A stretch of 33,201 bases of DNA from Campylobacterales bacterium. Lineage in GTDB: Bacteria > Campylobacterota > Campylobacteria > Campylobacterales > QNZT01. The DNA is taken from contig JAOZKZ010000004.1 of the NCBI GenBank assembly GCA_029935075.1, positions 1 through 33,201 of the forward strand. The letters are read 5' to 3'. Shown piece by piece: positions 1,158-32,724 of this stretch (position 1 is the first letter of the stretch; each line of letters starts with the position of its first letter). The position numbers and the translations under genes are program-made. The notes under the pieces are model-generated. The model was not told where the DNA came from. It searched no databases and saw nothing but the letters and a program-made list of their open reading frames with translations.

Positions 1158-2234
1158 ATGAATAAAAGAAAAACCACTAATCAATTTATAAAAGAAGCTC
1201 AAGTTAAACATAACAATTTCTACGGCTATAAAAAAGTTTTTTATAAAAATAATTACACACCAATAACCATAACATGCCCCGTGCATGGTGATTTTGAGAA
1301 AAGACCATCACATCATTTAACGGGCTCTGGGTGTCCAAGTTGTTTAAAGTGTCACAAAAGAAAAACCACTACTCAATTCATAAAAGAAGCTCAAGCTAAA
1401 CATAACAATTTTTACGGCTATGATAAAGCAGTATATATTACTAATAGAACATCAATAACCATAACATGCCCCGTGCATGGTGATTTTGAACAAAGACCAT
1501 CACATCATTTAAAAGGTTCTGGTTGTAAATGTTGTTCAGACACAAAACGAAACAATGATCAAAAAGATACTGTTTTGTCTTTTGTTGAAAAGGCAAACAT
1601 AAAACATAAAAACCATTACGGTTATGATAAAGTAATCTATATATCATCATCAGAGAAGGTAAAAATAACATGCCCCGTGCATGGTGATTTTGAACAAATA
1701 CCTAACTCCCATTTAAGGGGGTCAGGTTGTCCAAGTTGTGGTGTTAAAAATACACCTATAAAAAATTTCATAAAAAGATGTCAAAAAATCCACAACAATT
1801 TTTACAACTATGACAAGGTTTTATACAATATACTATCTGATAAAGTAACTATAACATGCCCCGTGCATGGTGATTTTGAACAAAATGGTAATTGTCATTT
1901 AAGGGGTCAGGGTTGTCCAAGTTGTGGAAATACAAAGAGCATCATTAGTAAATACAAGGATAAACAAACTACTATATACTATATATATTTTCCAGAGTTT
2001 AATTTGTATAAGATTGGTTTAACCCAATCAAGCATAAAAAGAAGATATGAGCAAGACAATATAAAAATAGAAACAATATCAACAAAAATATTTAAGGATG
2101 GTTCAGATGCTCTTAAACTTGAACAAAATGTTTTAAAATACTATAAAAAATACCAGTACAAAGGGAAGAAAATACTTAAAGGTGGAAATACTGAATTGTT
2201 TACTGAGGATGTTTTGTCAGACTTTTATAAATAA
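1158..2234 (+). CDS. Putative homing endonuclease: four Zn-ribbon repeats (DUF723/CapR-like) plus C-terminal GIY-YIG-like domain
   Basis: 4x ITCPVHGDFEQ..HL.G.GC..C; C-terminal TIYYIYF..NLYKIGLT..IKRR..LEQ..GNTELF. Confidence 0.75.
   Translation: MNKRKTTNQFIKEAQVKHNNFYGYKKVFYKNNYTPITITCPVHGDFEKRPSHHLTGSGCPSCLKCHKRKTTTQFIKEAQAKHNNFYGYDKAVYITNRTSITITCPVHGDFEQRPSHHLKGSGCKCCSDTKRNNDQKDTVLSFVEKANIKHKNHYGYDKVIYISSSEKVKITCPVHGDFEQIPNSHLRGSGCPSCGVKNTPIKNFIKRCQKIHNNFYNYDKVLYNILSDKVTITCPVHGDFEQNGNCHLRGQGCPSCGNTKSIISKYKDKQTTIYYIYFPEFNLYKIGLTQSSIKRRYEQDNIKIETISTKIFKDGSDALKLEQNVLKYYKKYQYKGKKILKGGNTELFTEDVLSDFYK
2226..2233 (+). promoter_or_regulatory. Late promoter TATAAATA for portal gene
   Basis: Exact consensus about 20 bp upstream of the portal ATG; overlaps the stop of the upstream endonuclease. 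Confidence 0.8.
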
Positions 2235-2252: not shown

Positions 2253-3788
2253 ATGACCTTATTTGAGAAATTAAAAAAATCTTTTACCAGAGATGATACC
2301 TCTATTAAGAACCCTAGTTCTGAAACAGACCTGATTCACAGAACCAAGGAACTAACCAACGATCCTTTTGGCGGAAGTATGGTACTTTCACAGGTAGACA
2401 ACCAGGACTATAACTTCAACCAGGGATTAGATGTACAGACATTCCAGAACTCTATTATCGAAAGATACAGGGAACTAGCAACTGATTCTGAAGTTTCTTC
2501 AGGCATAGACATCATAATCATGGAAATGATATACACTATCAATAAAGACACCTTCAAGATAGACATAGACGAAGAAAACGACAAAATTAAAGACCTTTTA
2601 TCTAAGACCTTTGATGATGTCTTGGCTTTATTGAATATAAAAGAAAACATTTTCAATATATGTAGACAATGTTATATAGATGGTCAGTTAAATGTAGCAT
2701 TGGTTTATCAACAAGGCAAGGTAAAAGAAGGAATAAAAAAATCATATCTCCTGGAACCCCAAGGGCTTTATTACGACAAAGCCTCTGAATCTTGGAAGTA
2801 CTCAGAGGATACTAATAACAACAGTCTTTATCAACAAGACGACACCAAAGGCGAAGTGTATTCAGAATCTGAATTAGTCCATGTTGACTTCGGTTTGTAT
2901 AGTAAATTCATAGATGATTCCAAACAGACTACTCAGATTAACCTTGGGTACCTTGAAGGTGTCTTCAAGAATGCCAATATGCTTCAGACCCTTGAAAATA
3001 TGCTTGTGCCTATGCGTTACTCTAGGTCAGTTTCAAGAAGAATGTTCAATATAGATGTTGCCGATCTGCCCCCAAAGCAAGCCAAAGAACTAATGGATAA
3101 AATCCGTAATGAGTTCAGGTATAAAAAATCTTATGACCCAAGTACAGGTGTTATCAAAAACATCAAGAGTACCCAGCCAATGGTAGAGGATTACTGGATG
3201 AGCAACCGTTCAGGGGCAAGAGGAACCACCGTAGATACCATGGATGAAAAGGGTGGTTTAATGGACATGGAAGACATCAGATACACTGCCAAAAAACTAT
3301 ACCAGAGTATGAAAATTCCATCATCAAGGAACCCTTATTCAGAAGAACAGCCGTCTTTTAGCTTTGATGACACCAGTATCACCCAAGAAGAACTATCTTT
3401 TTATATATTTGTATCCAGGCTGAGAATACCTATTACAAAGATGATTAAAGAAATCATGCGTAGACAACTAGTATCTACTGGTCAAATGACAGACACAGAG
3501 TGGAAAAATTTCGAGAAAAAAATAAATGTGTCTTTTACTAATGATGCTATTTTCCTAGAGAATATGAAAGCAGAGTTGTTCTTAAAGGCGATAGAAAACT
3601 TCGCTGGAATAAAAGACAACATAGGTGAGACAATCTCGTTACAAACAGCCGTAGAAAACACCTTTGGTTGGAGCACTGAACAACTCGATACAGAGTTAGA
3701 GAAAATGCTAAAAGAGCAAGAAAATCCCCTTTATTCTGCATTTTATGGTAGAAATGAAGAGGGTGATAATGACCCTTGGGCTTCTTAA
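2253..3788 (+). CDS. gp20: Portal vertex protein
   Basis: YRELA..EV..GID.I, YIDG, R.SR...RRMFNIDVADLP..QA, MVEDYW...RSG.RGT.VDT, DI.Y..KKLY.SMKIPSSR, ITQEEL.F..FV.RLR motifs of T4 gp20. Confidence 0.95.
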   Translation: MTLFEKLKKSFTRDDTSIKNPSSETDLIHRTKELTNDPFGGSMVLSQVDNQDYNFNQGLDVQTFQNSIIERYRELATDSEVSSGIDIIIMEMIYTINKDTFKIDIDEENDKIKDLLSKTFDDVLALLNIKENIFNICRQCYIDGQLNVALVYQQGKVKEGIKKSYLLEPQGLYYDKASESWKYSEDTNNNSLYQQDDTKGEVYSESELVHVDFGLYSKFIDDSKQTTQINLGYLEGVFKNANMLQTLENMLVPMRYSRSVSRRMFNIDVADLPPKQAKELMDKIRNEFRYKKSYDPSTGVIKNIKSTQPMVEDYWMSNRSGARGTTVDTMDEKGGLMDMEDIRYTAKKLYQSMKIPSSRNPYSEEQPSFSFDDTSITQEELSFYIFVSRLRIPITKMIKEIMRRQLVSTGQMTDTEWKNFEKKINVSFTNDAIFLENMKAELFLKAIENFAGIKDNIGETISLQTAVENTFGWSTEQLDTELEKMLKEQENPLYSAFYGRNEEGDNDPWAS

Positions 3789-4522
3789 CTTAAAAACCCC
3801 TTTAAGAAATTCTTTATCACCTTGCCTTGCTTTGGATATTTTTTCTTAATCAAGGTGTAAATCAAAGAACCACCGAATAAAATAGGTGTGCTCCCAGGCC
3901 AAGGAAATGATAACCCCAAGAGACCCCCAGCAGTAACAAATGTCAAGAACTTGGCACCCTCTGGTCCAGTCAAGAGATCAACAAGGTTAACATTACCTCT
4001 GATTGCCTGAAACAGGGCTTCTTGATCAAAATCAAAATCAACATCCCCAGTGAATGCTATTGTATTAGTCCATACATAAATTAACAGCCCTGCCAGAACA
4101 AGCCCTGATATTTTCTTTATTTTAGGGTTATTGTCCAGGAACACTTGGAGTTTTCTAATTTGCTCTTCAGAGGCATTAAAAGCCTTGTTCTTGGAGATAA
4201 AAATACCTATTTCATTTATAAGGGTCTTGTATCCTTGGTAGCCTTTTTTGACATACCCCAGGACTTTGTTTAAGTCCCAGTTGAACTCCTTGAACAACTC
4301 AAATATACTCTTCTCTTTAAATATCTTCAAGACATCCAAGAAACCCATGCCTATTTTTTGACTAAAGTTTTTGATAAACCCGAAGGCTTCCTTTAGCTTA
4401 TCAGGGATTTTGAGGTCTTGTAGGTTTCCTTCTAATAACAAGGTTTCGTATTCATTAGAAACCTCAAGGAATAGCTCGTACTCTGATATCTGGGGTTCTT
4501 TAAGGTATTGTTTAAAAGTCAT
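3785..4522 (-). CDS. Late hypothetical protein with CTS-like N-terminus (MTFKQYLKE) and hydrophobic C-terminal segments
   Basis: Long ORF; TATAAATA at 4546-4553 (-); start is 4522 (ATG) or 4528 (GTG). Confidence 0.7.
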   Translation of the reverse strand: MTFKQYLKEPQISEYELFLEVSNEYETLLLEGNLQDLKIPDKLKEAFGFIKNFSQKIGMGFLDVLKIFKEKSIFELFKEFNWDLNKVLGYVKKGYQGYKTLINEIGIFISKNKAFNASEEQIRKLQVFLDNNPKIKKISGLVLAGLLIYVWTNTIAFTGDVDFDFDQEALFQAIRGNVNLVDLLTGPEGAKFLTFVTAGGLLGLSFPWPGSTPILFGGSLIYTLIKKKYPKQGKVIKNFLKGFLS

Positions 4523-4548
4523 TGGCACAGGATAGCCTTTTTGGTTAT

Positions 4549-5610
4549 TTATACCTCGTGTGATTGGTGTATCATATCAAATTCCGTATAGTCAGGGTAA
4601 ACGAACCTCTGCATCATGTTGTCATAGACCTCTTCAGGAATTTTTTTATCTTTAGTATTTCTACCGAGACATGTATCCTTGGACTCCAAAAAGACTATAC
4701 ATTTCTTAAAATAACCTTTTAGTTTACTGTCGTGGAGCCATTTCTTACGGCTTTTTTTAGACATATTCGTCATGTCTATTACTATATCCTTCTGGTCTCT
4801 AAGGGCACCTTGAAAATCTTGTTGTATCTTTTTATCTATCTCTTTATGCTCTTCTTTCCCGAGCCTTAAGAAAACTTCATTGTAAGTCTCATTATTAGAA
4901 TATTCCATCAGGGTGTCATCCCTTGATATAATTACCACCCCGCTATCAGGGTTTTGTTCCTTGAGGTATCTTGCCTTGGTACTCTTACCGCTACTGGGTA
5001 AGCCTACCAAGAGAGTGATCATCCTTGGGGGTAGAACCTTAGTTTGGTCTTCTTTATACCATCTCAGGATATCATCAAAGTCATGGTATACCTCGTGATT
5101 ATCCTTTGCATTGTTTACCCTGCCTTGGTGGTCGTATCGGTAAAACCTGAACATATCCTTCAGGTCTTCTTTTCTGAATCTTTCCCTGATTTTTTTAAAG
5201 TGTTTCTCAGGAATTCTTTGGTCTTCAAAAAAGTTATACAAGGCACCATGGTTGGCTATCACCTTAAGGATTCTTGCTTTATCCCATGGCTCAAGCTCAG
5301 GGAAGCTTTTTATTACCCCTGCGGCATAGAATGTGCTCACTGCTTCATGGTTATTGAATCTTCGTCTTTGGTTACTAAAGTTGTCCTGAAAGACAAAGAC
5401 CTTACCTATATCATGACACAAACAAGCCACCTTCATCCAGAGGTCGCTTTGCTCTGCTTCTTTTAAGACCATTAGGGTGTGAGCCCAGACATTTTCGGCA
5501 TGCATAGGGTTTAAATGAATACCCAAGTAACCGTGTTCGGTTTCCTTCATCAGTTTATACAAATCGTAATGATTCTCGTAAAAACGCTCTATAACTTCAT
5601 AAGTAGTCAT
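4549..5610 (-). CDS. HD-domain phosphohydrolase fused to P-loop (AAA_33/Pnk-like) kinase
   Basis: H.ENVWAHT..V, CLCHDIGK, NHEAVS, ANHG, DHQGR; then LLVGLPSSGKST, ISRDD, IVIDMTN; ATG at 5610 with GGAG SD. Confidence 0.85.
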   Translation of the reverse strand: MTTYEVIERFYENHYDLYKLMKETEHGYLGIHLNPMHAENVWAHTLMVLKEAEQSDLWMKVACLCHDIGKVFVFQDNFSNQRRRFNNHEAVSTFYAAGVIKSFPELEPWDKARILKVIANHGALYNFFEDQRIPEKHFKKIRERFRKEDLKDMFRFYRYDHQGRVNNAKDNHEVYHDFDDILRWYKEDQTKVLPPRMITLLVGLPSSGKSTKARYLKEQNPDSGVVIISRDDTLMEYSNNETYNEVFLRLGKEEHKEIDKKIQQDFQGALRDQKDIVIDMTNMSKKSRKKWLHDSKLKGYFKKCIVFLESKDTCLGRNTKDKKIPEEVYDNMMQRFVYPDYTEFDMIHQSHEV

Positions 5611-5612
5611 TG

Positions 5613-6602
5613 TTAAATCTCCCACATTTTTAAATTTTTTGTTATCGGTTTTGAAAATACTCTCATATTACTTAAATGTTTATATTTAACGATAGATGTA
5701 TTCTTATTGATTCTATTTTTTATAAACTTCGATGTTGTGCCTATAGTTTTAGCAAATATTTCAAGTATATATTCATTAATAAATCTATATGTATTTTCAC
5801 CAATCTCAATAACAGTGACATTTCTTTTACTACACCCTGTCACATAGGGATTGTTCATAAATTCATCTAAATCGACTCTACGATATTCCATAGTTTTTAT
5901 ATTCAAAGATGATATAGTGTGTTTAGACAAAGTTGATAATTTGTCATGCCTATGTTGTTTCGTTTCTTTTGTTTCGTTTAGAAACTGGTTTTTAGCAGAA
6001 ATACTTCTAAAATTACTCCATGATTTTAGCTCATCTTGAGTCTTATTCTTCCAACATAGTGTTATTTTATCATTTCGTTTATCTTTATCATCTTGAGTCT
6101 TATTATTCCAATTTTCCTTAAGTTTTTGTGCACTCTCTTCTATCCTAGTCAATCCATTTTCTTGTACTGTTTTCATTGTTTTTTGTCGTTTCAATATACC
6201 TATTTTATCAGTACCACGGATTCTCATTGTTTCCCAAGCTTTTTTTGATGATCTTTGATAATCATTAATCCCGTTTTCATCCGGTGTTAATCTCCTTAAT
6301 ACTGTTTCTGGTTTTTCTCCTCCTCTTACACCACCATTACCACCCACACATAAATTATATGAAGTTCTATCTTGTACTATTGTTTCATCAACTATCATTC
6401 TTTCTATCCAAAACATTATCTCAGATGAGCGAAAAACACCTAGTACCAATTTCTCAAAATTTTCTTTTTTATATTTTAATACAGCTTGTTTTATTAGCAA
6501 TCCAGACCCTAAATATTCATCATTTATATCCAATGTTTGGTGAGCCCCAATGTAGTAATTATTGTTTATTTTATTTTTTGTTTCGTATATAGTATAATAC
6601 AT
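5613..6602 (-). CDS. Seg-like GIY-YIG homing endonuclease
   Basis: N-terminal YTIYETKNKINNNYYIGAH...YLGSG..I..A..KY..ENF.K...E......YNL..GG.GG. Confidence 0.85.
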   Translation of the reverse strand: MYYTIYETKNKINNNYYIGAHQTLDINDEYLGSGLLIKQAVLKYKKENFEKLVLGVFRSSEIMFWIERMIVDETIVQDRTSYNLCVGGNGGVRGGEKPETVLRRLTPDENGINDYQRSSKKAWETMRIRGTDKIGILKRQKTMKTVQENGLTRIEESAQKLKENWNNKTQDDKDKRNDKITLCWKNKTQDELKSWSNFRSISAKNQFLNETKETKQHRHDKLSTLSKHTISSLNIKTMEYRRVDLDEFMNNPYVTGCSKRNVTVIEIGENTYRFINEYILEIFAKTIGTTSKFIKNRINKNTSIVKYKHLSNMRVFSKPITKNLKMWEI

Positions 6603-6687
6603 GTATTCTCCATTTTAAGATTGTAAGGCTATCTTCATCGGAGAATGAAGAGGGTTCCGAACCCCATCAACTTACACTTTATTTATA
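6603..6687 (-). ncRNA. Late promoter plus conserved structured leader, copy 2
   Basis: Minus strand reads TATAAATA AAGTGTAAGTTGATG GGGTTCGGAACCC TCTTCAT-TCTCCG-ATGAAGA TAGCCTTACAA...TGGAGAATACATG. Confidence 0.7.
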
Positions 6688-6746
6688 AAGTTATACAATT
6701 CGTAATGATTTTCGTAAAATCTGTTAATAATTTCGTATGTGGTCAT
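6672..6746 (-). pseudogene. 24-codon stub duplicating the N-terminus of the HD/kinase gene
   Basis: MTTYEIINRFYENHYELYNFINKV* vs MTTYEVIERFYENHYDLYKLMKE at 5610; has its own AAGGA SD. Confidence 0.8.
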
Positions 6747-6771
6747 TTTATTTCCTTTTTGTTAAAAGTGC

Positions 6772-6960
6772 TTATAAAAAGTACTCAGGGTAATTTTCTA
6801 TTTGTTCCTCTGGGGTCATTCTTCTTACACTATCGGCATAATTTTTTGAGTTGGTATATGCATAATCATCAATGATGTTAAACTTCTTGTGTAATTTGTG
6901 ATTAAAAAACACACACTTCTCATCACCTATCAACATCACGGTTACTTGGAGTCTTTTCAT
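6772..6960 (-). CDS. Small protein with C-terminal YPEYFL tag
   Basis: ORF with SD; ends ENYPEYFL*. Confidence 0.75.
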   Translation of the reverse strand: MKRLQVTVMLIGDEKCVFFNHKLHKKFNIIDDYAYTNSKNYADSVRRMTPEEQIENYPEYFL

Positions 6961-6968
6961 TTTATCCC

Positions 6969-7124
6969 TTAGAGGTTATTAGTAAACTTAATCCTGCCAC
7001 ATTTGGTACATCTTGTGGTAAATTCTATGCCTATTTTTTCATCACCTTCATAAATTTCTGTTTTGCCTATAATCACATCGGTATGAAAACACCCTTGAAA
7101 AAGGAACACCAAAAGCCTAAGCAT
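6969..7124 (-). CDS. Small Zn-ribbon-like hypothetical protein
   Basis: C.H...CTKCG; start trimmed to ATG 7124 (AAGGA SD). Confidence 0.55.
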   Translation of the reverse strand: MLRLLVFLFQGCFHTDVIIGKTEIYEGDEKIGIEFTTRCTKCGRIKFTNNL

Positions 7125-7389
7125 TTTTATCCTTCTGGTTGAACCAGCTACAGTAATCGGAGTCATCTAGGATATCCCCCGAGATTGGACATTCGTGTGT
7201 GTCTCTTAGTTGACATTCTTTACAAGAACCTACTAAGGATACTATAGTTTCCATGCCTTTTACTTCAGCCTCGGTTGTCAAGTAGTGTAAGTTGTATTCA
7301 CTGTATTCATTAAACTCCCCAGAAGGTGCTTGTTGAATTTCTGGGGAGTTTAAATAATCTTGAAGTTTTTTTAGTGTTTTGTGTATCAT
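7117..7389 (-). CDS. Hypothetical protein (Cys-rich C-terminus)
   Basis: ORF with SD; CKEC..C....YCS.F. Confidence 0.65.
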   Translation of the reverse strand: MIHKTLKKLQDYLNSPEIQQAPSGEFNEYSEYNLHYLTTEAEVKGMETIVSLVGSCKECQLRDTHECPISGDILDDSDYCSWFNQKDKNA

Positions 7390-7398
7390 TATTTTTCC

Positions 7399-7587
7399 TT
7401 ATTCCTTGTAATCACTTAAAATTTCTGCTCTGATTTCATCGGGGCTTAGGACTCTTGTCATGACTCTTAAGACACCATTAAAATTAAGTGTTACTTTATG
7501 AACAAAGGTATCTTTAAGCATCGTGTTAGCAAGGTCTACCTGGTCTTGAAATTTATCACCAGCCTGGGGCTCTATTACTATATACAT
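7399..7587 (-). CDS. Hypothetical protein
   Basis: First gene after early promoter 7615-7637; start trimmed to ATG 7587. Confidence 0.65.
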   Translation of the reverse strand: MYIVIEPQAGDKFQDQVDLANTMLKDTFVHKVTLNFNGVLRVMTRVLSPDEIRAEILSDYKE

Positions 7588-7614
7588 ATCTTTCCTTTTT
7601 CTTAAATATGTCCT

Positions 7615-7637
7615 ATTATACCACACTTTGCCTTAAA
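7615..7637 (-). promoter_or_regulatory. Early (host sigma70-type) promoter TTTAAG-N8-TGGTATAAT
   Basis: Same motif at 50-72, 9859-9881, 11795, 12146-12168, 13190-13212, 14664-14686, 15764-15786, 16744-16766, 17359-17381, 18890-18912, 19312-19333, 29156-29178, 29648-29669 (all minus) and 25160-25181 (plus). Confidence 0.85.
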
Positions 7638-7674
7638 AGGAGGTTAAAATTTTGGACTAATACTGGACTAATAA

Positions 7675-8184
7675 CTAATACTGAAACACATACCCTGCTA
7701 AAATCCAGATACTTTTCCAGTCATTATTTTTCATTAGCTCTTCATGACTAAGCCACACGACTCTTTTTTTATGTTTATCATTTAGTCCATTACAATCTAT
7801 CATGTACCCGTGGCAGTACTGGTTCATCTGGGTGGATACTAGTGTCTTTCCTATGTAATTGATACAATGCCCCGGGACATCAAACCCTGATTCCTCAAAG
7901 ACCTCTACCTTGGTTATTTCCTCTGGGTTTTTCCCAGGCATGTCAAAAGACCCACCAAAAGCAGTAGTCATTTTTACTCTTTTGTTTTCTCTTTCATCCA
8001 AGGGTGGCTTGGACTCGTTAATCAACCCGAACTTCCCGTCTCGGTAAAGAATAAATGCTACTGAGTCTTTCCCTGCCCTTTCTCCGTAGATATAGTACGA
8101 TTGGGCTCGCTTTACCGTGAAGTAAGGCTCGTTTTGGTGGTTCTTTTCCTCGGATTCGTAGAGAATTTCTGCTGTTCTTTTCAT
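7675..8184 (-). CDS. Nudix hydrolase
   Basis: Nudix-box variant GGSFDMPGKNPEEITKVEVFEESGFDV; SVAFILY upstream. Confidence 0.75.
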   Translation of the reverse strand: MKRTAEILYESEEKNHQNEPYFTVKRAQSYYIYGERAGKDSVAFILYRDGKFGLINESKPPLDERENKRVKMTTAFGGSFDMPGKNPEEITKVEVFEESGFDVPGHCINYIGKTLVSTQMNQYCHGYMIDCNGLNDKHKKRVVWLSHEELMKNNDWKSIWILAGYVFQY

Positions 8185-8191
8185 AATCCCT

Positions 8192-8404
8192 TTATCCTTT
8201 GTTTAAATTCATATCGTTTCTGTATACAACCCCACCAAGGACACTAACCCCTATAACAAAAAACAAAGGCACCAAGGCTTCACCAAAAATAGGCATGAGT
8301 ATAAAAAATAACCCTAAGCCTATTGTACCAAGAATACCAAAAAACAACCCTGTGGTCACAACAACCGTAAAAACTATCCCTGTGCCTGTTAAAAAATCTC
8401 TCAT
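8192..8404 (-). CDS. Small membrane protein (2 TM)
   Basis: Hydrophobic ORF with SD. Confidence 0.65.
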   Translation of the reverse strand: MRDFLTGTGIVFTVVVTTGLFFGILGTIGLGLFFILMPIFGEALVPLFFVIGVSVLGGVVYRNDMNLNKG

Positions 8405-8413
8405 TATTTTCCT

Positions 8414-8521
8414 TTATTCAAAACTACCCACTAATGTAGGGTTTACCATAGCATGCTTAAGTGACCAATAACTAGAGAATATCACTATTACTATAATCAC
8501 TGCTATTACAAATTTATTCAC
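8414..8521 (-). CDS. Small membrane peptide (35 aa, not in ORF track)
   Basis: GTG start overlapping the rnl2 end; VNKFVIAVIIVIVIFSSYWSLKHAMVNPTLVGSFE*; fills the gap exactly. Confidence 0.5.
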   Translation of the reverse strand: MNKFVIAVIIVIVIFSSYWSLKHAMVNPTLVGSFE

Positions 8522-9590
8522 CAGACCCCCCGAGGGCCTCTCTTAGTATCTCAGCTTTTATATAATCTCTTGTTATGTTACTGATGTATTTCTGGATGTC
8601 TTTAATCTCAAGATCATATTCCACAAAGCCTTGGGTTTCTTCTTTGATTACATCATTCAAGACCCATTTGATTATATTACCCATCATTTTAATTTCTAAT
8701 CTACCGCCATTATTAAGGTCTGCTACCTCTTGAATTCCCTGATTGAGTCTACAAACAGGCGTTACCTTCTCGGCTAGTTCTTGCTTTACCTGTTCAAGGG
8801 GGTCTTTTACCTTGGGTTGTTTTTCTTTGGTTCCTTTGGAATGAGATTCGCCTTTAACCTTGAAAATATACCTCTGGTTGTTATTATACCCTACAAAAAC
8901 TCCGCCTTCTCCAACACCGATATATCCCAATTCTCTGGCTACCGGGCACTCTTTATCCACCTTAAGGATGTATTCATTAATTTTGTTGTAGGCTTCCTTA
9001 GGGTCGTTAAAGTCTATAACGAACTTTTTTGTTTCAAAATCAAATAGATTATAGATACCTTTTTCAGGGTCGGTGAATTTTTCAATAATCTCTTTGGGGT
9101 TTTTTTCCCATGAGCCTTCTGTGGTATCCTCGTCATAGTTAACACTGGTGTATTTAACCCCAAAGACAAAGAAAGACTTTTTTAAGAGTTTGTTAATCCC
9201 TGTGTTTTTTTGAATCCCTGGTCCTGCGAACTCTCCCATCAAGGATACCTCTATTATACTACCGTCTCTTCTAATAGAATTTTCAAAAAGATCGTTTAAT
9301 TTCTCCGTGAAATAGTCTTCATTTTTCTGGACAAACATAGCAAACCCTGCGTTGTCCTTCATAGGGGTTATCTTTGAGCCTTTTGAATAAACCTTAAGGA
9401 AAATTCCATCATAAGCAACCCTGGCAAAAGTCCCGTGTAGTTTTACCGTGCTTTTGAACTCTATTTCAGGCAAAGGCAGGGTTTCGTCTGTAATGACAGT
9501 CCCGTCTACTTCTGTCCTGATGTAATAAGTCTCTCTTTTGATATCAAAAACGGTGTCCTCGAATTTACCAATACTTGTCATATTTGCCAT
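8514..9590 (-). CDS. RNA ligase, Rnl2 family
   Basis: Motif I TVKLHGT, DNAGFA, GEFAGPGIQK (III), FFVFGV (IIIa), GEGGVF (IV), FKVKGE.HS (V); Rnl2-type C-terminal domain. Confidence 0.88.
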   Translation of the reverse strand: MANMTSIGKFEDTVFDIKRETYYIRTEVDGTVITDETLPLPEIEFKSTVKLHGTFARVAYDGIFLKVYSKGSKITPMKDNAGFAMFVQKNEDYFTEKLNDLFENSIRRDGSIIEVSLMGEFAGPGIQKNTGINKLLKKSFFVFGVKYTSVNYDEDTTEGSWEKNPKEIIEKFTDPEKGIYNLFDFETKKFVIDFNDPKEAYNKINEYILKVDKECPVARELGYIGVGEGGVFVGYNNNQRYIFKVKGESHSKGTKEKQPKVKDPLEQVKQELAEKVTPVCRLNQGIQEVADLNNGGRLEIKMMGNIIKWVLNDVIKEETQGFVEYDLEIKDIQKYISNITRDYIKAEILREALGGSGE

Positions 9591-27236: not shown

Positions 27237-27485
27237 TTATAAGTAATACTCAGGGTGGTCTTCTATGGGAACTTCTCTTACTAAGTTAAACCTAGCCATG
27301 TCTTGGTCAAGATTCATCGTTATTATATATGCCCCATCATCCCATGTGTCTTGTGTCTTGTTTAATCCAGGGTCAGAGGCATGGACAAATTCTCCTAGTA
27401 TACCCCATTCTATGTGTTTTTTTGATATGATTTTCACCACAGAGTTATCCTCGGTGTAATAAAACCGTTTTGCTTTTATTTCCAT
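27237..27485 (-). CDS. PE-tag array protein (ends DHPEYYL)
   Basis: AAGGA SD; C-terminal tag. Confidence 0.8.
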   Translation of the reverse strand: MEIKAKRFYYTEDNSVVKIISKKHIEWGILGEFVHASDPGLNKTQDTWDDGAYIITMNLDQDMARFNLVREVPIEDHPEYYL

Positions 27486-31258: not shown

Positions 31259-31837
31259 ATGAAACAGACTAAACACACAAATGAAAATGTCGTAATAACA
31301 GAAACAACGAAATTTTACGAGGGAAATTTTTTAAAAAATGCCATGAAAAAAGCAAAATCTTTTGTTAAAGACACCTACCGAGATGTCAAAAGAAATGCCA
31401 AAGGGATAATAAAAGACCTTAAGAAGAAATACTCCCAGTCTAAAAAACCAGAGAATTTCATAGCAGGCAAGATGATAGCATTCCAATACAAGGCAAAAGA
31501 TGCCACGAAAAAATACGATGCTTCTCCTTTGGTGATATCACTGGGGTATTCTCAGAACCCTAAATACAGACAGACACACTTCATCGGGTTAAACTGCCAT
31601 TGGCTTCCGATGAACGACAGAGTAAAAATTTCTTCTTTTTTTGTAGAACTAAGCGAAAAAAGAAACGGCAAGTTATTGTATTCTGATGTCAAACCATTCT
31701 TAAGCAAGTTCAAAGGACACCCAGTCCTAAGACAATATATAATAAAAAATGTGGGCCCTAAGGTAATAGAAATGCCTTCTGATGTTTTCATGACAGCAGC
31801 GGCCGTACCATCTGAAAATTGGATGGGTGGAAGATAA
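31259..31837 (+). CDS. gp2: DNA end protector protein (T4 gp2-like)
   Basis: GKM..F.Y.AK....YD..PLVI.L......F.GLN.HWLP...R, ..RQYI...V; adjacent to gp4. Confidence 0.8.
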   Translation: MKQTKHTNENVVITETTKFYEGNFLKNAMKKAKSFVKDTYRDVKRNAKGIIKDLKKKYSQSKKPENFIAGKMIAFQYKAKDATKKYDASPLVISLGYSQNPKYRQTHFIGLNCHWLPMNDRVKISSFFVELSEKRNGKLLYSDVKPFLSKFKGHPVLRQYIIKNVGPKVIEMPSDVFMTAAAVPSENWMGGR

Positions 31838-31842
31838 GGAAT

Positions 31843-31932
31843 TATAAATAAAGTGTAAGTTGATGGTGTCGAAACCCTCTTGATTACCTATAGTCAAGAT
31901 AGCCTTACAAATTCTTCATATAGGAAAACAAA
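31843..31932 (+). ncRNA. Late promoter plus conserved structured leader, copy 3
   Basis: TATAAATA AAGTGTAAGTTGATG GTGTCGAAACCC TCTTGATT-ACCTAT-AGTCAAGA TAGCCTTACAA...ATAGGAAAACAAAATG. Confidence 0.7.
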
Positions 31933-32724
31933 ATGATAATATACAAAGCTACTTCAAACACATCAGGTAAAAGTTATATTGGCGCTACAAGCAGAACCAT
32001 AGAACTTAGACAAAAAGAACATGAAAAATTAGCAAATTTAAACCCCAAAAATAAACATTTTTATTACGCTTTACTAAAATACGGATACAACGATTTTGAT
32101 TGGTGTGTTTTAGAAGAAGCAGAAACACAAGAATTAATGTATATAAAAGAAAAAGAATATATTAAAAAATTTAACACATATTCTAAAGGATACAACATGA
32201 CACCAGGTGGAGAAGGAGGCAGATCTGGAAAATATTCAGAAGATGATAGAAAAAGACTTTACTCTAATAGAAAATATAATTCTGATAGCACGGGCAAAAA
32301 ATCAATGTACTTCTTAGGCATAAATAAGTGTAGATTTGTTGATAAAAAAGATATACCTTATTATCTTGAACAAGGGTGGATGATGGGATCGAAAAAAAGG
32401 TCTCTTAAAAAACATACTTGTAAACTACCACCCAAAAAAAAATATAGTACTAAGCCTTTTTTGACCGGATTAAATAACCCATCTGGGATGATAATAGAAA
32501 TCTACGACAATAATCACAACCTTGTAGTGACCTCCGAAGGGAGTTTAAAAAATGTTTGTAAAAAATTAGGTGTGCCTTATGGTCAAATAGCAAACAGTTT
32601 TAAAACGGGGGTGCCCTTATATCACAATACAAAAGACAATGTGATGACAAGGTTAAAAAACAATGGCAATATAAAATTCAAAGGTTGGTATGCGATTAAA
32701 ATACAAGATAAGGAAAGAAAATGA
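31933..32724 (+). CDS. GIY-YIG homing endonuclease
   Basis: IIYKAT...SGKSYIGAT....R..EH, AL.KYG..DF.W.VLE, KE.EYI....T...GYNMT.GGEG. Confidence 0.88.
   Translation: MIIYKATSNTSGKSYIGATSRTIELRQKEHEKLANLNPKNKHFYYALLKYGYNDFDWCVLEEAETQELMYIKEKEYIKKFNTYSKGYNMTPGGEGGRSGKYSEDDRKRLYSNRKYNSDSTGKKSMYFLGINKCRFVDKKDIPYYLEQGWMMGSKKRSLKKHTCKLPPKKKYSTKPFLTGLNNPSGMIIEIYDNNHNLVVTSEGSLKNVCKKLGVPYGQIANSFKTGVPLYHNTKDNVMTRLKNNGNIKFKGWYAIKIQDKERK

Follow-up and report, generated by a model that had tools for sequence, protein, structure and literature searches.

How an intact gene can follow an endonuclease gene directly while a second, diverged copy of its first codons stands on the other side of that endonuclease gene is the question raised by a locus on contig JAOZKZ010000004.1 of the Campylobacterales assembly GCA_029935075.1. 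The window, namely the whole stretch of DNA analyzed (33,201 nucleotides, nt), is the entire 33-kb contig, which was binned with a 2.4-Mb metagenome-assembled genome and belongs to a very divergent T4-like phage. On its minus strand, a 24-codon open reading frame (ORF), hereafter referred to as the stub, is followed by a GIY-YIG endonuclease gene furnished with its own promoter and leader, and then by the complete gene for a protein having an HD phosphohydrolase domain and a P-loop kinase domain (HD/kinase). We consider this arrangement to be the scar left when an endonuclease gene homed from one T4-like phage into another, diverged one by a one-sided, that is, half-illegitimate, route, a reading to which we assign a probability of roughly 0.6.

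Duplicated start of the HD/kinase gene

The original prediction, made from the sequence of the window, had placed a stub, an inserted cassette and an intact gene at this locus, and all three were confirmed on the minus strand at the coordinates it had given. The stub (6746–6672) encodes MTTYEIINRFYENHYELYNFINKV* and is preceded by the Shine–Dalgarno sequence (SD) AAAGGAAAT, placed 4–5 nt before its ATG. The ATG and codons 2–19 (6690..6746), with their own SD just upstream, represent a relic of a second allele of the HD/kinase gene start, and codons 20–24 together with the stop are read from the T4-type late-promoter box TATAAATA (6687–6680) and the beginning of the leader. This box forms the left end of the cassette, which continues through the structured leader (6603..6690) into the ORF of the free-standing endonuclease (6602–5613; 329 amino acids, aa), the stop codon of which occupies 5615–5613. 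After a gap of only 2 nt, the intact HD/kinase gene (4549..5610; 353 aa; PF01966 and PF13671) begins at 5610 with MTTYEVIERFYENHYDLYKLMKE. Its ribosome-binding site (RBS) GGGAG (5623–5619) is embedded in the last endonuclease codons, and its codons 1–19 (5554..5610) constitute the second copy of the duplicated segment.

The duplication was well supported by the sequence comparisons. When the 2.4-Mb assembly was searched with the stub by tblastn, the gene start was found at E = 1e-6, and the HD/kinase gene was otherwise present in a single copy. A local DNA alignment of the cassette flanks scored 59, compared with 18.6 ± 2.3 (maximum 27) over 200 shuffles. The homology between the stub and the gene start sets in 1 nt ahead of the ATG and stops at codon 19, and its end coincides, at (T)TTATAAATA, with the start of a module common to seven leader copies. 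The cassette boundary is thus supported as lying about 19–21 codons into a copy of the gene start, in good agreement with the predicted insertion about 20 codons into the gene. The expectation that the insertion is harmless without splicing was also supported, in that the HD/kinase protein is complete, its alignment with relatives runs from residue 1, its gene has its own SD, and no sign of an intron was detected. Translational bypassing or protein splicing of the insert, which was considered as a candidate, was set aside in view of the completeness of the downstream gene.

Over codons 1–19, 45 of the 57 bases are identical in the two copies (79% DNA identity). As had been anticipated, the 12 differences are largely at third codon positions: third positions account for nine of them, first positions for three and second positions for none (binomial P = 0.004). 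Fifteen of the 19 residues are kept, six of the ten changed codons are synonymous, and the proportions of differing synonymous (pS) and nonsynonymous (pN) sites between the stub and the working start are 0.67 and 0.13, respectively. Because the differences are mostly at third positions and never at second ones, the two copies appear to be diverged working alleles rather than a working gene and its decayed local duplicate. The third-position bias and the pS and pN values likewise indicate that both copies diverged under selection at the protein level. The original prediction had regarded the downstream start as recoded; no purposeful recoding has to be assumed, since pS and pN values of this kind are typical of orthologous alleles from diverged phages.

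To which of the two phages each copy belonged was judged from the context and the codon usage. The stub retains its resident intergenic spacing and SD behind a 62-aa ORF (6772..6960, minus strand) that ends in YPEYFL*, has its stop 25 nt before the stub ATG, and showed no family match in Pfam and PHROGs. The fit of codon usage to the contig, expressed as the sum of log relative codon frequencies, was −14.2 for the stub versus −16.3 for the downstream copy, the working start using CGT, which accounts for 7% of the Arg codons here. Based on this native context and the weak codon-usage difference, the stub is most likely the resident (recipient) copy, and the working codons 1–19 are most likely derived from the donor and were co-copied with the endonuclease gene.

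The arrangement was also examined in the contigs of three sequencing runs of one study, in which the uncovered parts of run X3 are uninformative; no RNA run was listed among those with this DNA. A Logan contig of run X1, possibly the source sample, spans 5042–7400 with no differences, and this agreement of an independently built contig indicates that the arrangement is not a peculiarity of one assembler. Run X2 contained no single piece spanning the stub/leader junction with 31 nt on each side. Contigs of the same sample matched the kinase half at 93% identity over 4708–4897 (13 of 190 bases differ) and at 84% over 4930–5071 (23 of 142 bases differ). The co-occurrence of such 84–93% identical contigs, from diverged strains or phages, indicates that diverged partners for a mixed infection exist.

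Properties of the GIY-YIG endonuclease

The 329-aa protein matched phrog_314 at 3.8e-26, and a tblastn search with it found 859 phage records, many of the 25 matches listed being annotated as Seg-like homing endonucleases. Its GIY-YIG motifs are represented by TIY at residues 4–6 and YIG at residues 17–19, and Y6, Y17, G19, E67, and N83 were invariant in a 27-sequence alignment of the N-terminal domain (N-domain). The profile built from this alignment matched the catalytic domain of I-TevI over positions 1–85 (1LN0, E = 1.4e-5; 1MK0, 9.9e-5), and in the HMMER alignment E67 fell on the second E of the I-TevI motif ERE and N83 on the N of its GYN, which correspond to the catalytic Glu and Asn of I-TevI, E75 and N90. 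At the place aligned with the conserved Arg after the YIG motif, presumably R27 of I-TevI, Arg is lacking in the 329-aa protein and in all 26 aligned relatives, and D..Y.GSG is found there instead. Since 25 of the 27 alignment members still match PF19835 (SegE_GIY-YIG), this absence looks like a trait of the subgroup. The 329-aa protein itself does not match PF19835 and gave no other Pfam or NCBIfam match when searched alone, and a direct search of the solved structures with it yielded no matches. Judged by these motifs and profile matches, the ORF is a Seg-like GIY-YIG homing endonuclease gene.

As befits a free-standing gene, the endonuclease ORF possesses its own TATAAATA box, leader and SD. 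An Rfam scan of 4000–8500 at E ≤ 1 revealed no intron family, the sole match being an unrelated microRNA model at 0.16. The endonuclease ATG follows the stub stop after just 69 nt, and flanks of 69 nt and 2 nt leave no room for a ribozyme core.

Promoter box and leader shared with other endonuclease genes

The window contains 12 TATAAATA boxes, compared with 5.05 ± 2.14 in shuffled sequences, none of the 100 shuffles reaching 12, and when their positions are set against the ORF list, at least nine of them are found no more than about 120 nt in front of an ORF start on the same strand. A sigma-70 promoter scan gave 24 hits versus 18.7 ± 4.6 in shuffles, and was not above expectation.

In front of the endonuclease gene, the box belongs to a module of about 85 nt that further comprises an invariant outer helix and two hairpins and that occurs in six copies on three contigs of the assembly. 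Three copies are in the window (6603–6690 on the minus strand, and 1069–1157 and 31840–31932 on the plus strand), and the other three copies in the assembly (G000) are at C63:7443–7529 (plus), C63:4262–4176 (minus), and C1:17340–17258 (minus). A leader search of metagenome contigs added one match, at L096:62–148, where the module fronts an HNH gene on an unrelated contig, and the same search of IMG/VR gave no matches. Every copy precedes an endonuclease-type gene, either GIY-YIG, SegE-like GIY-YIG, zinc-ribbon/T5orf172, or HNH. The five other endonuclease genes equipped with the module in this assembly are of three kinds, and none is situated inside another gene. Four of these five cassettes directly adjoin the next gene's start signals or overlap them, and at the fifth (C63:7443) the next ORF is on the opposite strand. 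The cassette accordingly forms a discrete unit.

The box is invariant in all seven leader copies and lies upstream of all three helices. The outer helix P1 (TGTAAG/CTTACA), which is likewise invariant, is formed by the pairing of 6676–6671 with 6627–6622 and encloses the hairpins P2 (6664–6652) and P3 (6651–6632). The P3 loop ATTCTCC (6646–6640) is complementary to the SD region GGAGAAT (6611–6605), and this complementarity is maintained through four sequence variants. In a 7 × 7 duplex matrix, the cognate pairs had calculated energies of −7.3 to −10.6 kcal/mol and in no row were they bettered by a non-cognate pair; the margin was clear for three variants and was only 0.2 kcal/mol over the L096 SD for the commonest one. 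On these predicted pairings, the leader looks like an SD-sequestering device. In T4, late transcripts start about 6 nt behind the box, and a start at that distance would here take off only part of the 5′ arm of P1.

As stated in the original prediction, the stub runs into the late promoter and stops on a TAA in the outer stem: the TAA (6674–6672) is located within the 5′ arm of P1 (6676–6671). The first 16 nt counted from the box close all three reading frames in all seven copies, and none of the other six leader copies is entered by an upstream annotated gene. Since every copy of the module carries this TAA and the other-frame stops unchanged, the position of the stub stop in the outer helix is incidental; a side effect of the stop on leader folding in read-through RNA is possible. 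A second candidate stub at C63:7443, a 25-codon TTG frame running to the same TAA, was rejected as spurious, as it overlaps the preceding gene in another frame. The similarity of the promoter box to codons 20–23 of the gene, which might have pointed to an operator-like site, was also dismissed, 7 of 12 matching bases being at the chance level in AT-rich DNA.

Several further observations concern the other cassettes. The two leader copies on C63 are 100% identical yet front unrelated genes, and this identity suggests recent exchange between leaders. At the cassette at 31843–32724, which carries a GIY-YIG gene, an exact 11-nt direct repeat, AAGATAAGGAA, is found at 31832–31842 and 32706–32716. 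Within it lie the upstream gene's stop and the SD of the gene that follows, and the endonuclease ORF reads through the second repeat copy to end on the ATGA of the next gene. The score of this repeat was not above chance, but the repeat is positioned exactly at both junctions. The zinc-ribbon/T5orf172 ORF (1158–2234, plus strand) ends on a TATAAATA box at 2226–2233 that would serve the portal gene (2253–3788), so that the late promoter of a neighbor is embedded in an endonuclease ORF, as has likewise been described for several T4 seg and mob genes. The recurring structured leader at unrelated endonuclease genes may perhaps be the more interesting feature of this genome.

Related loci

Relatives carrying both copies, which the original prediction had named as evidence that would count against it, were not encountered: none of 18 full-length relative loci has its own N-terminus duplicated upstream, although this is a weak test of the absence of a duplicate, as these relatives are 25–47% identical by the best tblastn segment. 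A search of 5.8 billion proteins provided 121 HD/kinase homologues, all at ≤50% identity, with the nearest at 50%. In L007, the nearest viral contig (47%), an RNA ligase gene, a small ORF, and the HD/kinase gene are arranged with one gene start and no endonuclease gene.

The adjacency of the endonuclease and HD/kinase genes recurs in the IMG/VR contig L013 (span 2380–3483), in which a gene for a 338-aa GIY-YIG protein homologous to the endonuclease is located 39 nt upstream of an HD/kinase gene, the product of which is only 36% identical to the HD/kinase protein here. The L013 endonuclease gene has a plain TATAAATA box 22 nt before its ATG and lacks the structured leader. The homology to the L013 protein (28% identity, E = 1e-18) covers residues 82–308 of the 329-aa protein, a region that is not part of the catalytic domain and that was found in no other protein. 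Among 80 IMG/VR loci with N-domain relatives, neither an HD/kinase gene nor the C-terminal region was detected within 2.5 kb, and two endonuclease relatives in named phages are located elsewhere, one beside nrdD in a Pseudotevenvirus and the other in Pseudomonas phage pf16. By this comparison, the association between the endonuclease and HD/kinase genes is specific, though seen in one case. Given the L013 adjacency and the manner in which the other cassettes abut the starts of the next genes, the endonuclease gene probably occupies its usual position, and it is the stub that is out of the ordinary.

Other routes to a related locus gave little. An IMG/VR related-locus search with the single HD/kinase protein and a search of IMG/VR with a degenerate DNA pattern for FYENHY(E/D)LY both returned nothing, the GTDB contigs contained distant kinase matches only, and the HD/kinase gene was found in none of the 31 genomes of the bin's family.

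Proposed origin and alternative explanations

In the proposed event, the donor phage would have carried the cassette (late promoter, structured leader and ORF) immediately upstream of its HD/kinase gene, with the last endonuclease codons overlapping the RBS of that gene. A double-strand break within the first ~60 nt of the recipient HD/kinase gene would have been repaired from the co-infecting, diverged donor. On the gene side, homologous pairing would have allowed the donor gene start, its SD, and the entire cassette to be copied leftwards. On the other side, the copying would not have been resolved in homologous upstream DNA, but by an illegitimate join at the box's left edge, possibly via a few shared bases in TAT(A/G)AC/TTTAT. 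The recipient SD, ATG and first ~19 codons would thereby have been stranded upstream, giving an ORF of 24 codons that extends into the promoter and ends within the leader, and the gene would have stayed functional without splicing because the donor copy supplied a complete start. The TTTAT at the junction is assignable to either partner, since Met21 is invariant in the HD/kinase family, and TAT(A/G)AC is likewise found in front of the box of one further cassette. We infer the direction of transfer (stub resident, working start imported), the position of the break, and the repair pathway from this scar. Immunity of the working copy to cleavage, as implied in the original prediction, would be plausible given what is seen in other homing systems.

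Several observations weigh against this proposal. At the junction itself, the cassette/stub boundary is uncertain by about 2–8 nt, and there is no clean microhomology. The codon-usage hint at the direction hangs mainly on one codon. None of the five other cassettes showed a flank duplication above the shuffle range, four of them being without any, and the gene-start duplication therefore looks like a one-off rather than a property of the cassette. The adjacency of the endonuclease and HD/kinase genes was found at 1 of 89 HD/kinase-type loci, namely L013. No empty allele or joint was seen in the contigs of the three runs, and no close allele free of the homing endonuclease gene, by which the direction and the resident status of the stub could be judged, was found in any collection searched.

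It must also be considered whether the stub, rather than the working start, came with the cassette. In that case the downstream gene would be wholly resident, the donor endonuclease gene would have lain 19 codons inside a donor gene, and the insertion would have occurred just before the ATG. The duplication is symmetric and hence silent on which copy is foreign, and the searches found no empty allele that would decide. This explanation, however, presupposes that the donor's HD/kinase gene had been disrupted beforehand, and it leaves aside that the stub has a good SD and stands at normal spacing behind the resident 62-aa ORF. The working SD in the last endonuclease codons gives these two genes the look of a co-adapted unit, as at four of the five other cassettes, and codon usage mildly favors the stub as resident; we thus regard the explanation as unlikely. 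Somewhat lower still is the likelihood that the gene start was duplicated in situ, by a long target-site duplication or by replication slippage, and that the copies then diverged within the lineage. The exact 11-nt repeats of the 31843–32724 cassette show that short flank duplications accompany insertion, but an unselected stub should have changed at all codon positions, whereas 9 of the 12 differences are at third and none at second positions, 15 of 19 residues are kept, and the frame is still open. Furthermore, 21% divergence with nearly saturated synonymous sites implies a long separate coding history. In a variant of this explanation, the working copy could later have been converted by a diverged phage, an event that is possible and that merges into the half-illegitimate homing proposed above.

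The good SD of the stub and its stop in the 5′ arm of P1 raise a different idea, that the stub is a working leader peptide, translation of which on early read-through RNA would end in P1, melt the leader, and control the endonuclease or the HD/kinase gene. That the leader looks SD-sequestering, with its P3 loop–SD complementarity kept in four variants, speaks for such control. Nevertheless, the P1 TAA and the other-frame stops are invariant in all seven copies, as expected if the stop is a by-product of the insertion frame, and conservation of the peptide cannot be invoked, as no relative has the stub; we hold this role to be quite improbable. That the insert is an intron of group I or II or is otherwise spliced or bypassed, or that two strains were joined into a chimera during assembly, is hardly credible. 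Diverged strain contigs are present in the sample and would allow for a chimera, but the X1 Logan contig bridges 5042–7400 and the junction shares too few bases to seed a k-mer misjoin. Nothing was found in favor of splicing: there is neither an Rfam intron family in 4000–8500 nor room for a ribozyme, splicing would restore nothing given the complete downstream gene, and the same leader module fronts genes that are not inside other genes.

A bolder reading, which we advance as a tentative and rather doubtful possibility, is that the mobile unit is more than the endonuclease gene, namely a self-sufficient gene-start replacement cassette consisting of the promoter, the SD-masking leader, the endonuclease gene, the SD, and ~19 diverged, cleavage-immune initial codons of the target gene. 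The end of the stub would then mark the endonuclease break site in the resident allele, and termination of stub translation in P1 would open the leader on early RNA. If this were true, the cassette would be the 5′-end mirror image of the mobile ORFs of fungal mitochondria discussed below, and stub termination would give this cassette copy an expression timing unlike that of the other five.

Features of the HD/kinase protein and neighboring genes

In the 353-aa protein, the HD domain is N-terminal and the polynucleotide-kinase-type P-loop kinase domain is C-terminal. The PHROG matches were to phrog_6931 and to phrog_505 (polynucleotide kinase), and matches to Pnkp were weak. An RNA ligase gene is located at 9590–8514 on the minus strand, the HD/kinase gene lying ~3 kb downstream of it, and the two form an adjacent pair in L007. 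Based on the domain content, the HD/kinase protein is probably an RNA end-healing enzyme, and together with the RNA ligase it looks like an end-healing and sealing repair pair in which the HD domain replaces the usual phosphatase domain.

The C-terminal motif (E/N)(M/Y)YPEYFL* is common to several small ORFs of the phage, namely 6772–6960 and about 27240–27365 in the window (both on the minus strand) and 999–1241 and 1251–1475 on L003. Two of these ORFs directly precede endonuclease cassettes, and the ORFs showed no family match.

Comparison with known systems

Phage genomes are believed to be reshaped by free-standing homing endonucleases, which carry flanking sequence from one phage to a related one, and the evidence for this comes mostly from T-even crosses. 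Here, a natural genome keeps both alleles of an exchanged segment side by side, and thus offers a direct record that a flank travelled with an endonuclease gene, an estimate of the divergence of the partners (about 21% at the DNA level), and a candidate position for the break and the illegitimate junction. The stub-type and working-type sequences also provide a substrate pair for mapping the target of the enzyme and the determinants of immunity.

The expression signals in front of the endonuclease gene have counterparts in T4-type phages. RBS-sequestering RNA structures combined with a late promoter are described for I-TevI, I-TevII, I-TevIII, segB, and Aeh1 mobE in the sections of a review devoted to these genes (PMC2988022), and a late box and an SD-pairing RNA structure likewise precede the endonuclease gene here. 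Unlike in those cases, the leader found here has three helices, its SD is complemented by a hairpin loop and not by a simple stem, and the box is upstream of the structure. The PeSLs, which according to the portion of the report cited are mobile regulatory cassettes of T4-type phages, resemble the present module in that a short regulatory element recurs at many sites of one T4-like genome (PMC2839356). They carry early promoter and terminator motifs, in contrast to the late box and SD-complementary leader of the module here, for which no Rfam family was found in the copy scanned (within 4000–8500).

With regard to the position of the gene, intronless homing in T4, as covered in the same review, involves segE, which lies between inh and uvsW and targets uvsW, and segG, which lies beside gene 32 (PMC2988022). 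As here, a GIY-YIG gene stands beside a conserved gene, with signals of the neighbor embedded in its ORF. In the T4 Seg systems, the flanking markers are co-converted, as proposed here for the gene start, and the adjoining gene is the target, and the accounts given there describe no duplicated diverged gene start (PMC2988022), whereas one is present here. The insertion of endonuclease genes is also known to have split genes, the examples listed there being Aeh1 nrdA/mobE, T4 39–60/mobA, and phage 25 gene 43; in these, the endonuclease gene lies within a former single frame, and the two parts are both required, coming together again as separate polypeptides (PMC2988022). At the present locus, by contrast, a complete gene lies downstream, and what is left upstream is a redundant remnant.

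A mechanistic precedent is provided by T4 homing with one-sided homology, in which illegitimate junctions form at microhomologies, as outlined in the review citing Parker, Belisle and Belfort (1999); flanks are, according to the review, as a rule co-converted in T4 homing (PMC2988022). The likeness to the event proposed here is that homology on one side suffices, that the other junction is at a microhomology, and that a site without the normal flank is entered. The T4 case, as summarized, used an engineered plasmid–phage system with an intron (PMC2988022), whereas the cassette here is natural and free-standing, and its route is reconstructed from the scar alone. Our literature search by title and abstract, which did not extend to subscription journals, found no phage example with a duplicated gene start.

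The closest parallel is found in fungal mitochondria, in the mobile ORFs (mORFs) reported for Allomyces macrogynus atp6 and for Glomus atp6, atp9, cox2, and nad3 in the parts of the study drawn on here (PMC3630166). In both systems, an endonuclease ORF brings a diverged replacement gene end, the native end is stranded, and the gene remains whole without splicing. The degree of divergence is also comparable, the foreign mORF copies described being 64–81% identical at the DNA level with similar proteins (PMC3630166), as against 79% identity and 15 of 19 residues kept here. The native copy of the mORF-bearing genes was identified from close relatives, as the cited part of that study presents it (PMC3630166), whereas no relative above 50% protein identity was found here and the stub was taken as native from a weak codon-usage hint. 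In the mORFs as described, the 3′ end of the gene, encoding the C-terminus, is replaced, the insert is often fused in frame, the setting is an organelle, and the endonucleases are mostly of the LAGLIDADG type (PMC3630166). In contrast, the present case concerns the 5′ end of a phage gene and a free-standing Seg-like GIY-YIG endonuclease gene with a promoter and a leader, and the 24-codon relic is an ORF with an initiation site of its own. An element of this kind can accordingly enter an RNA-repair gene and leave it working with no intron involved, as fungal mitochondria illustrate for the 3′ ends of genes, and the hallmark of the mORF type is present at this locus as well: the gene end is duplicated on both sides of the endonuclease ORF, with one copy joined to the gene and the other stranded.

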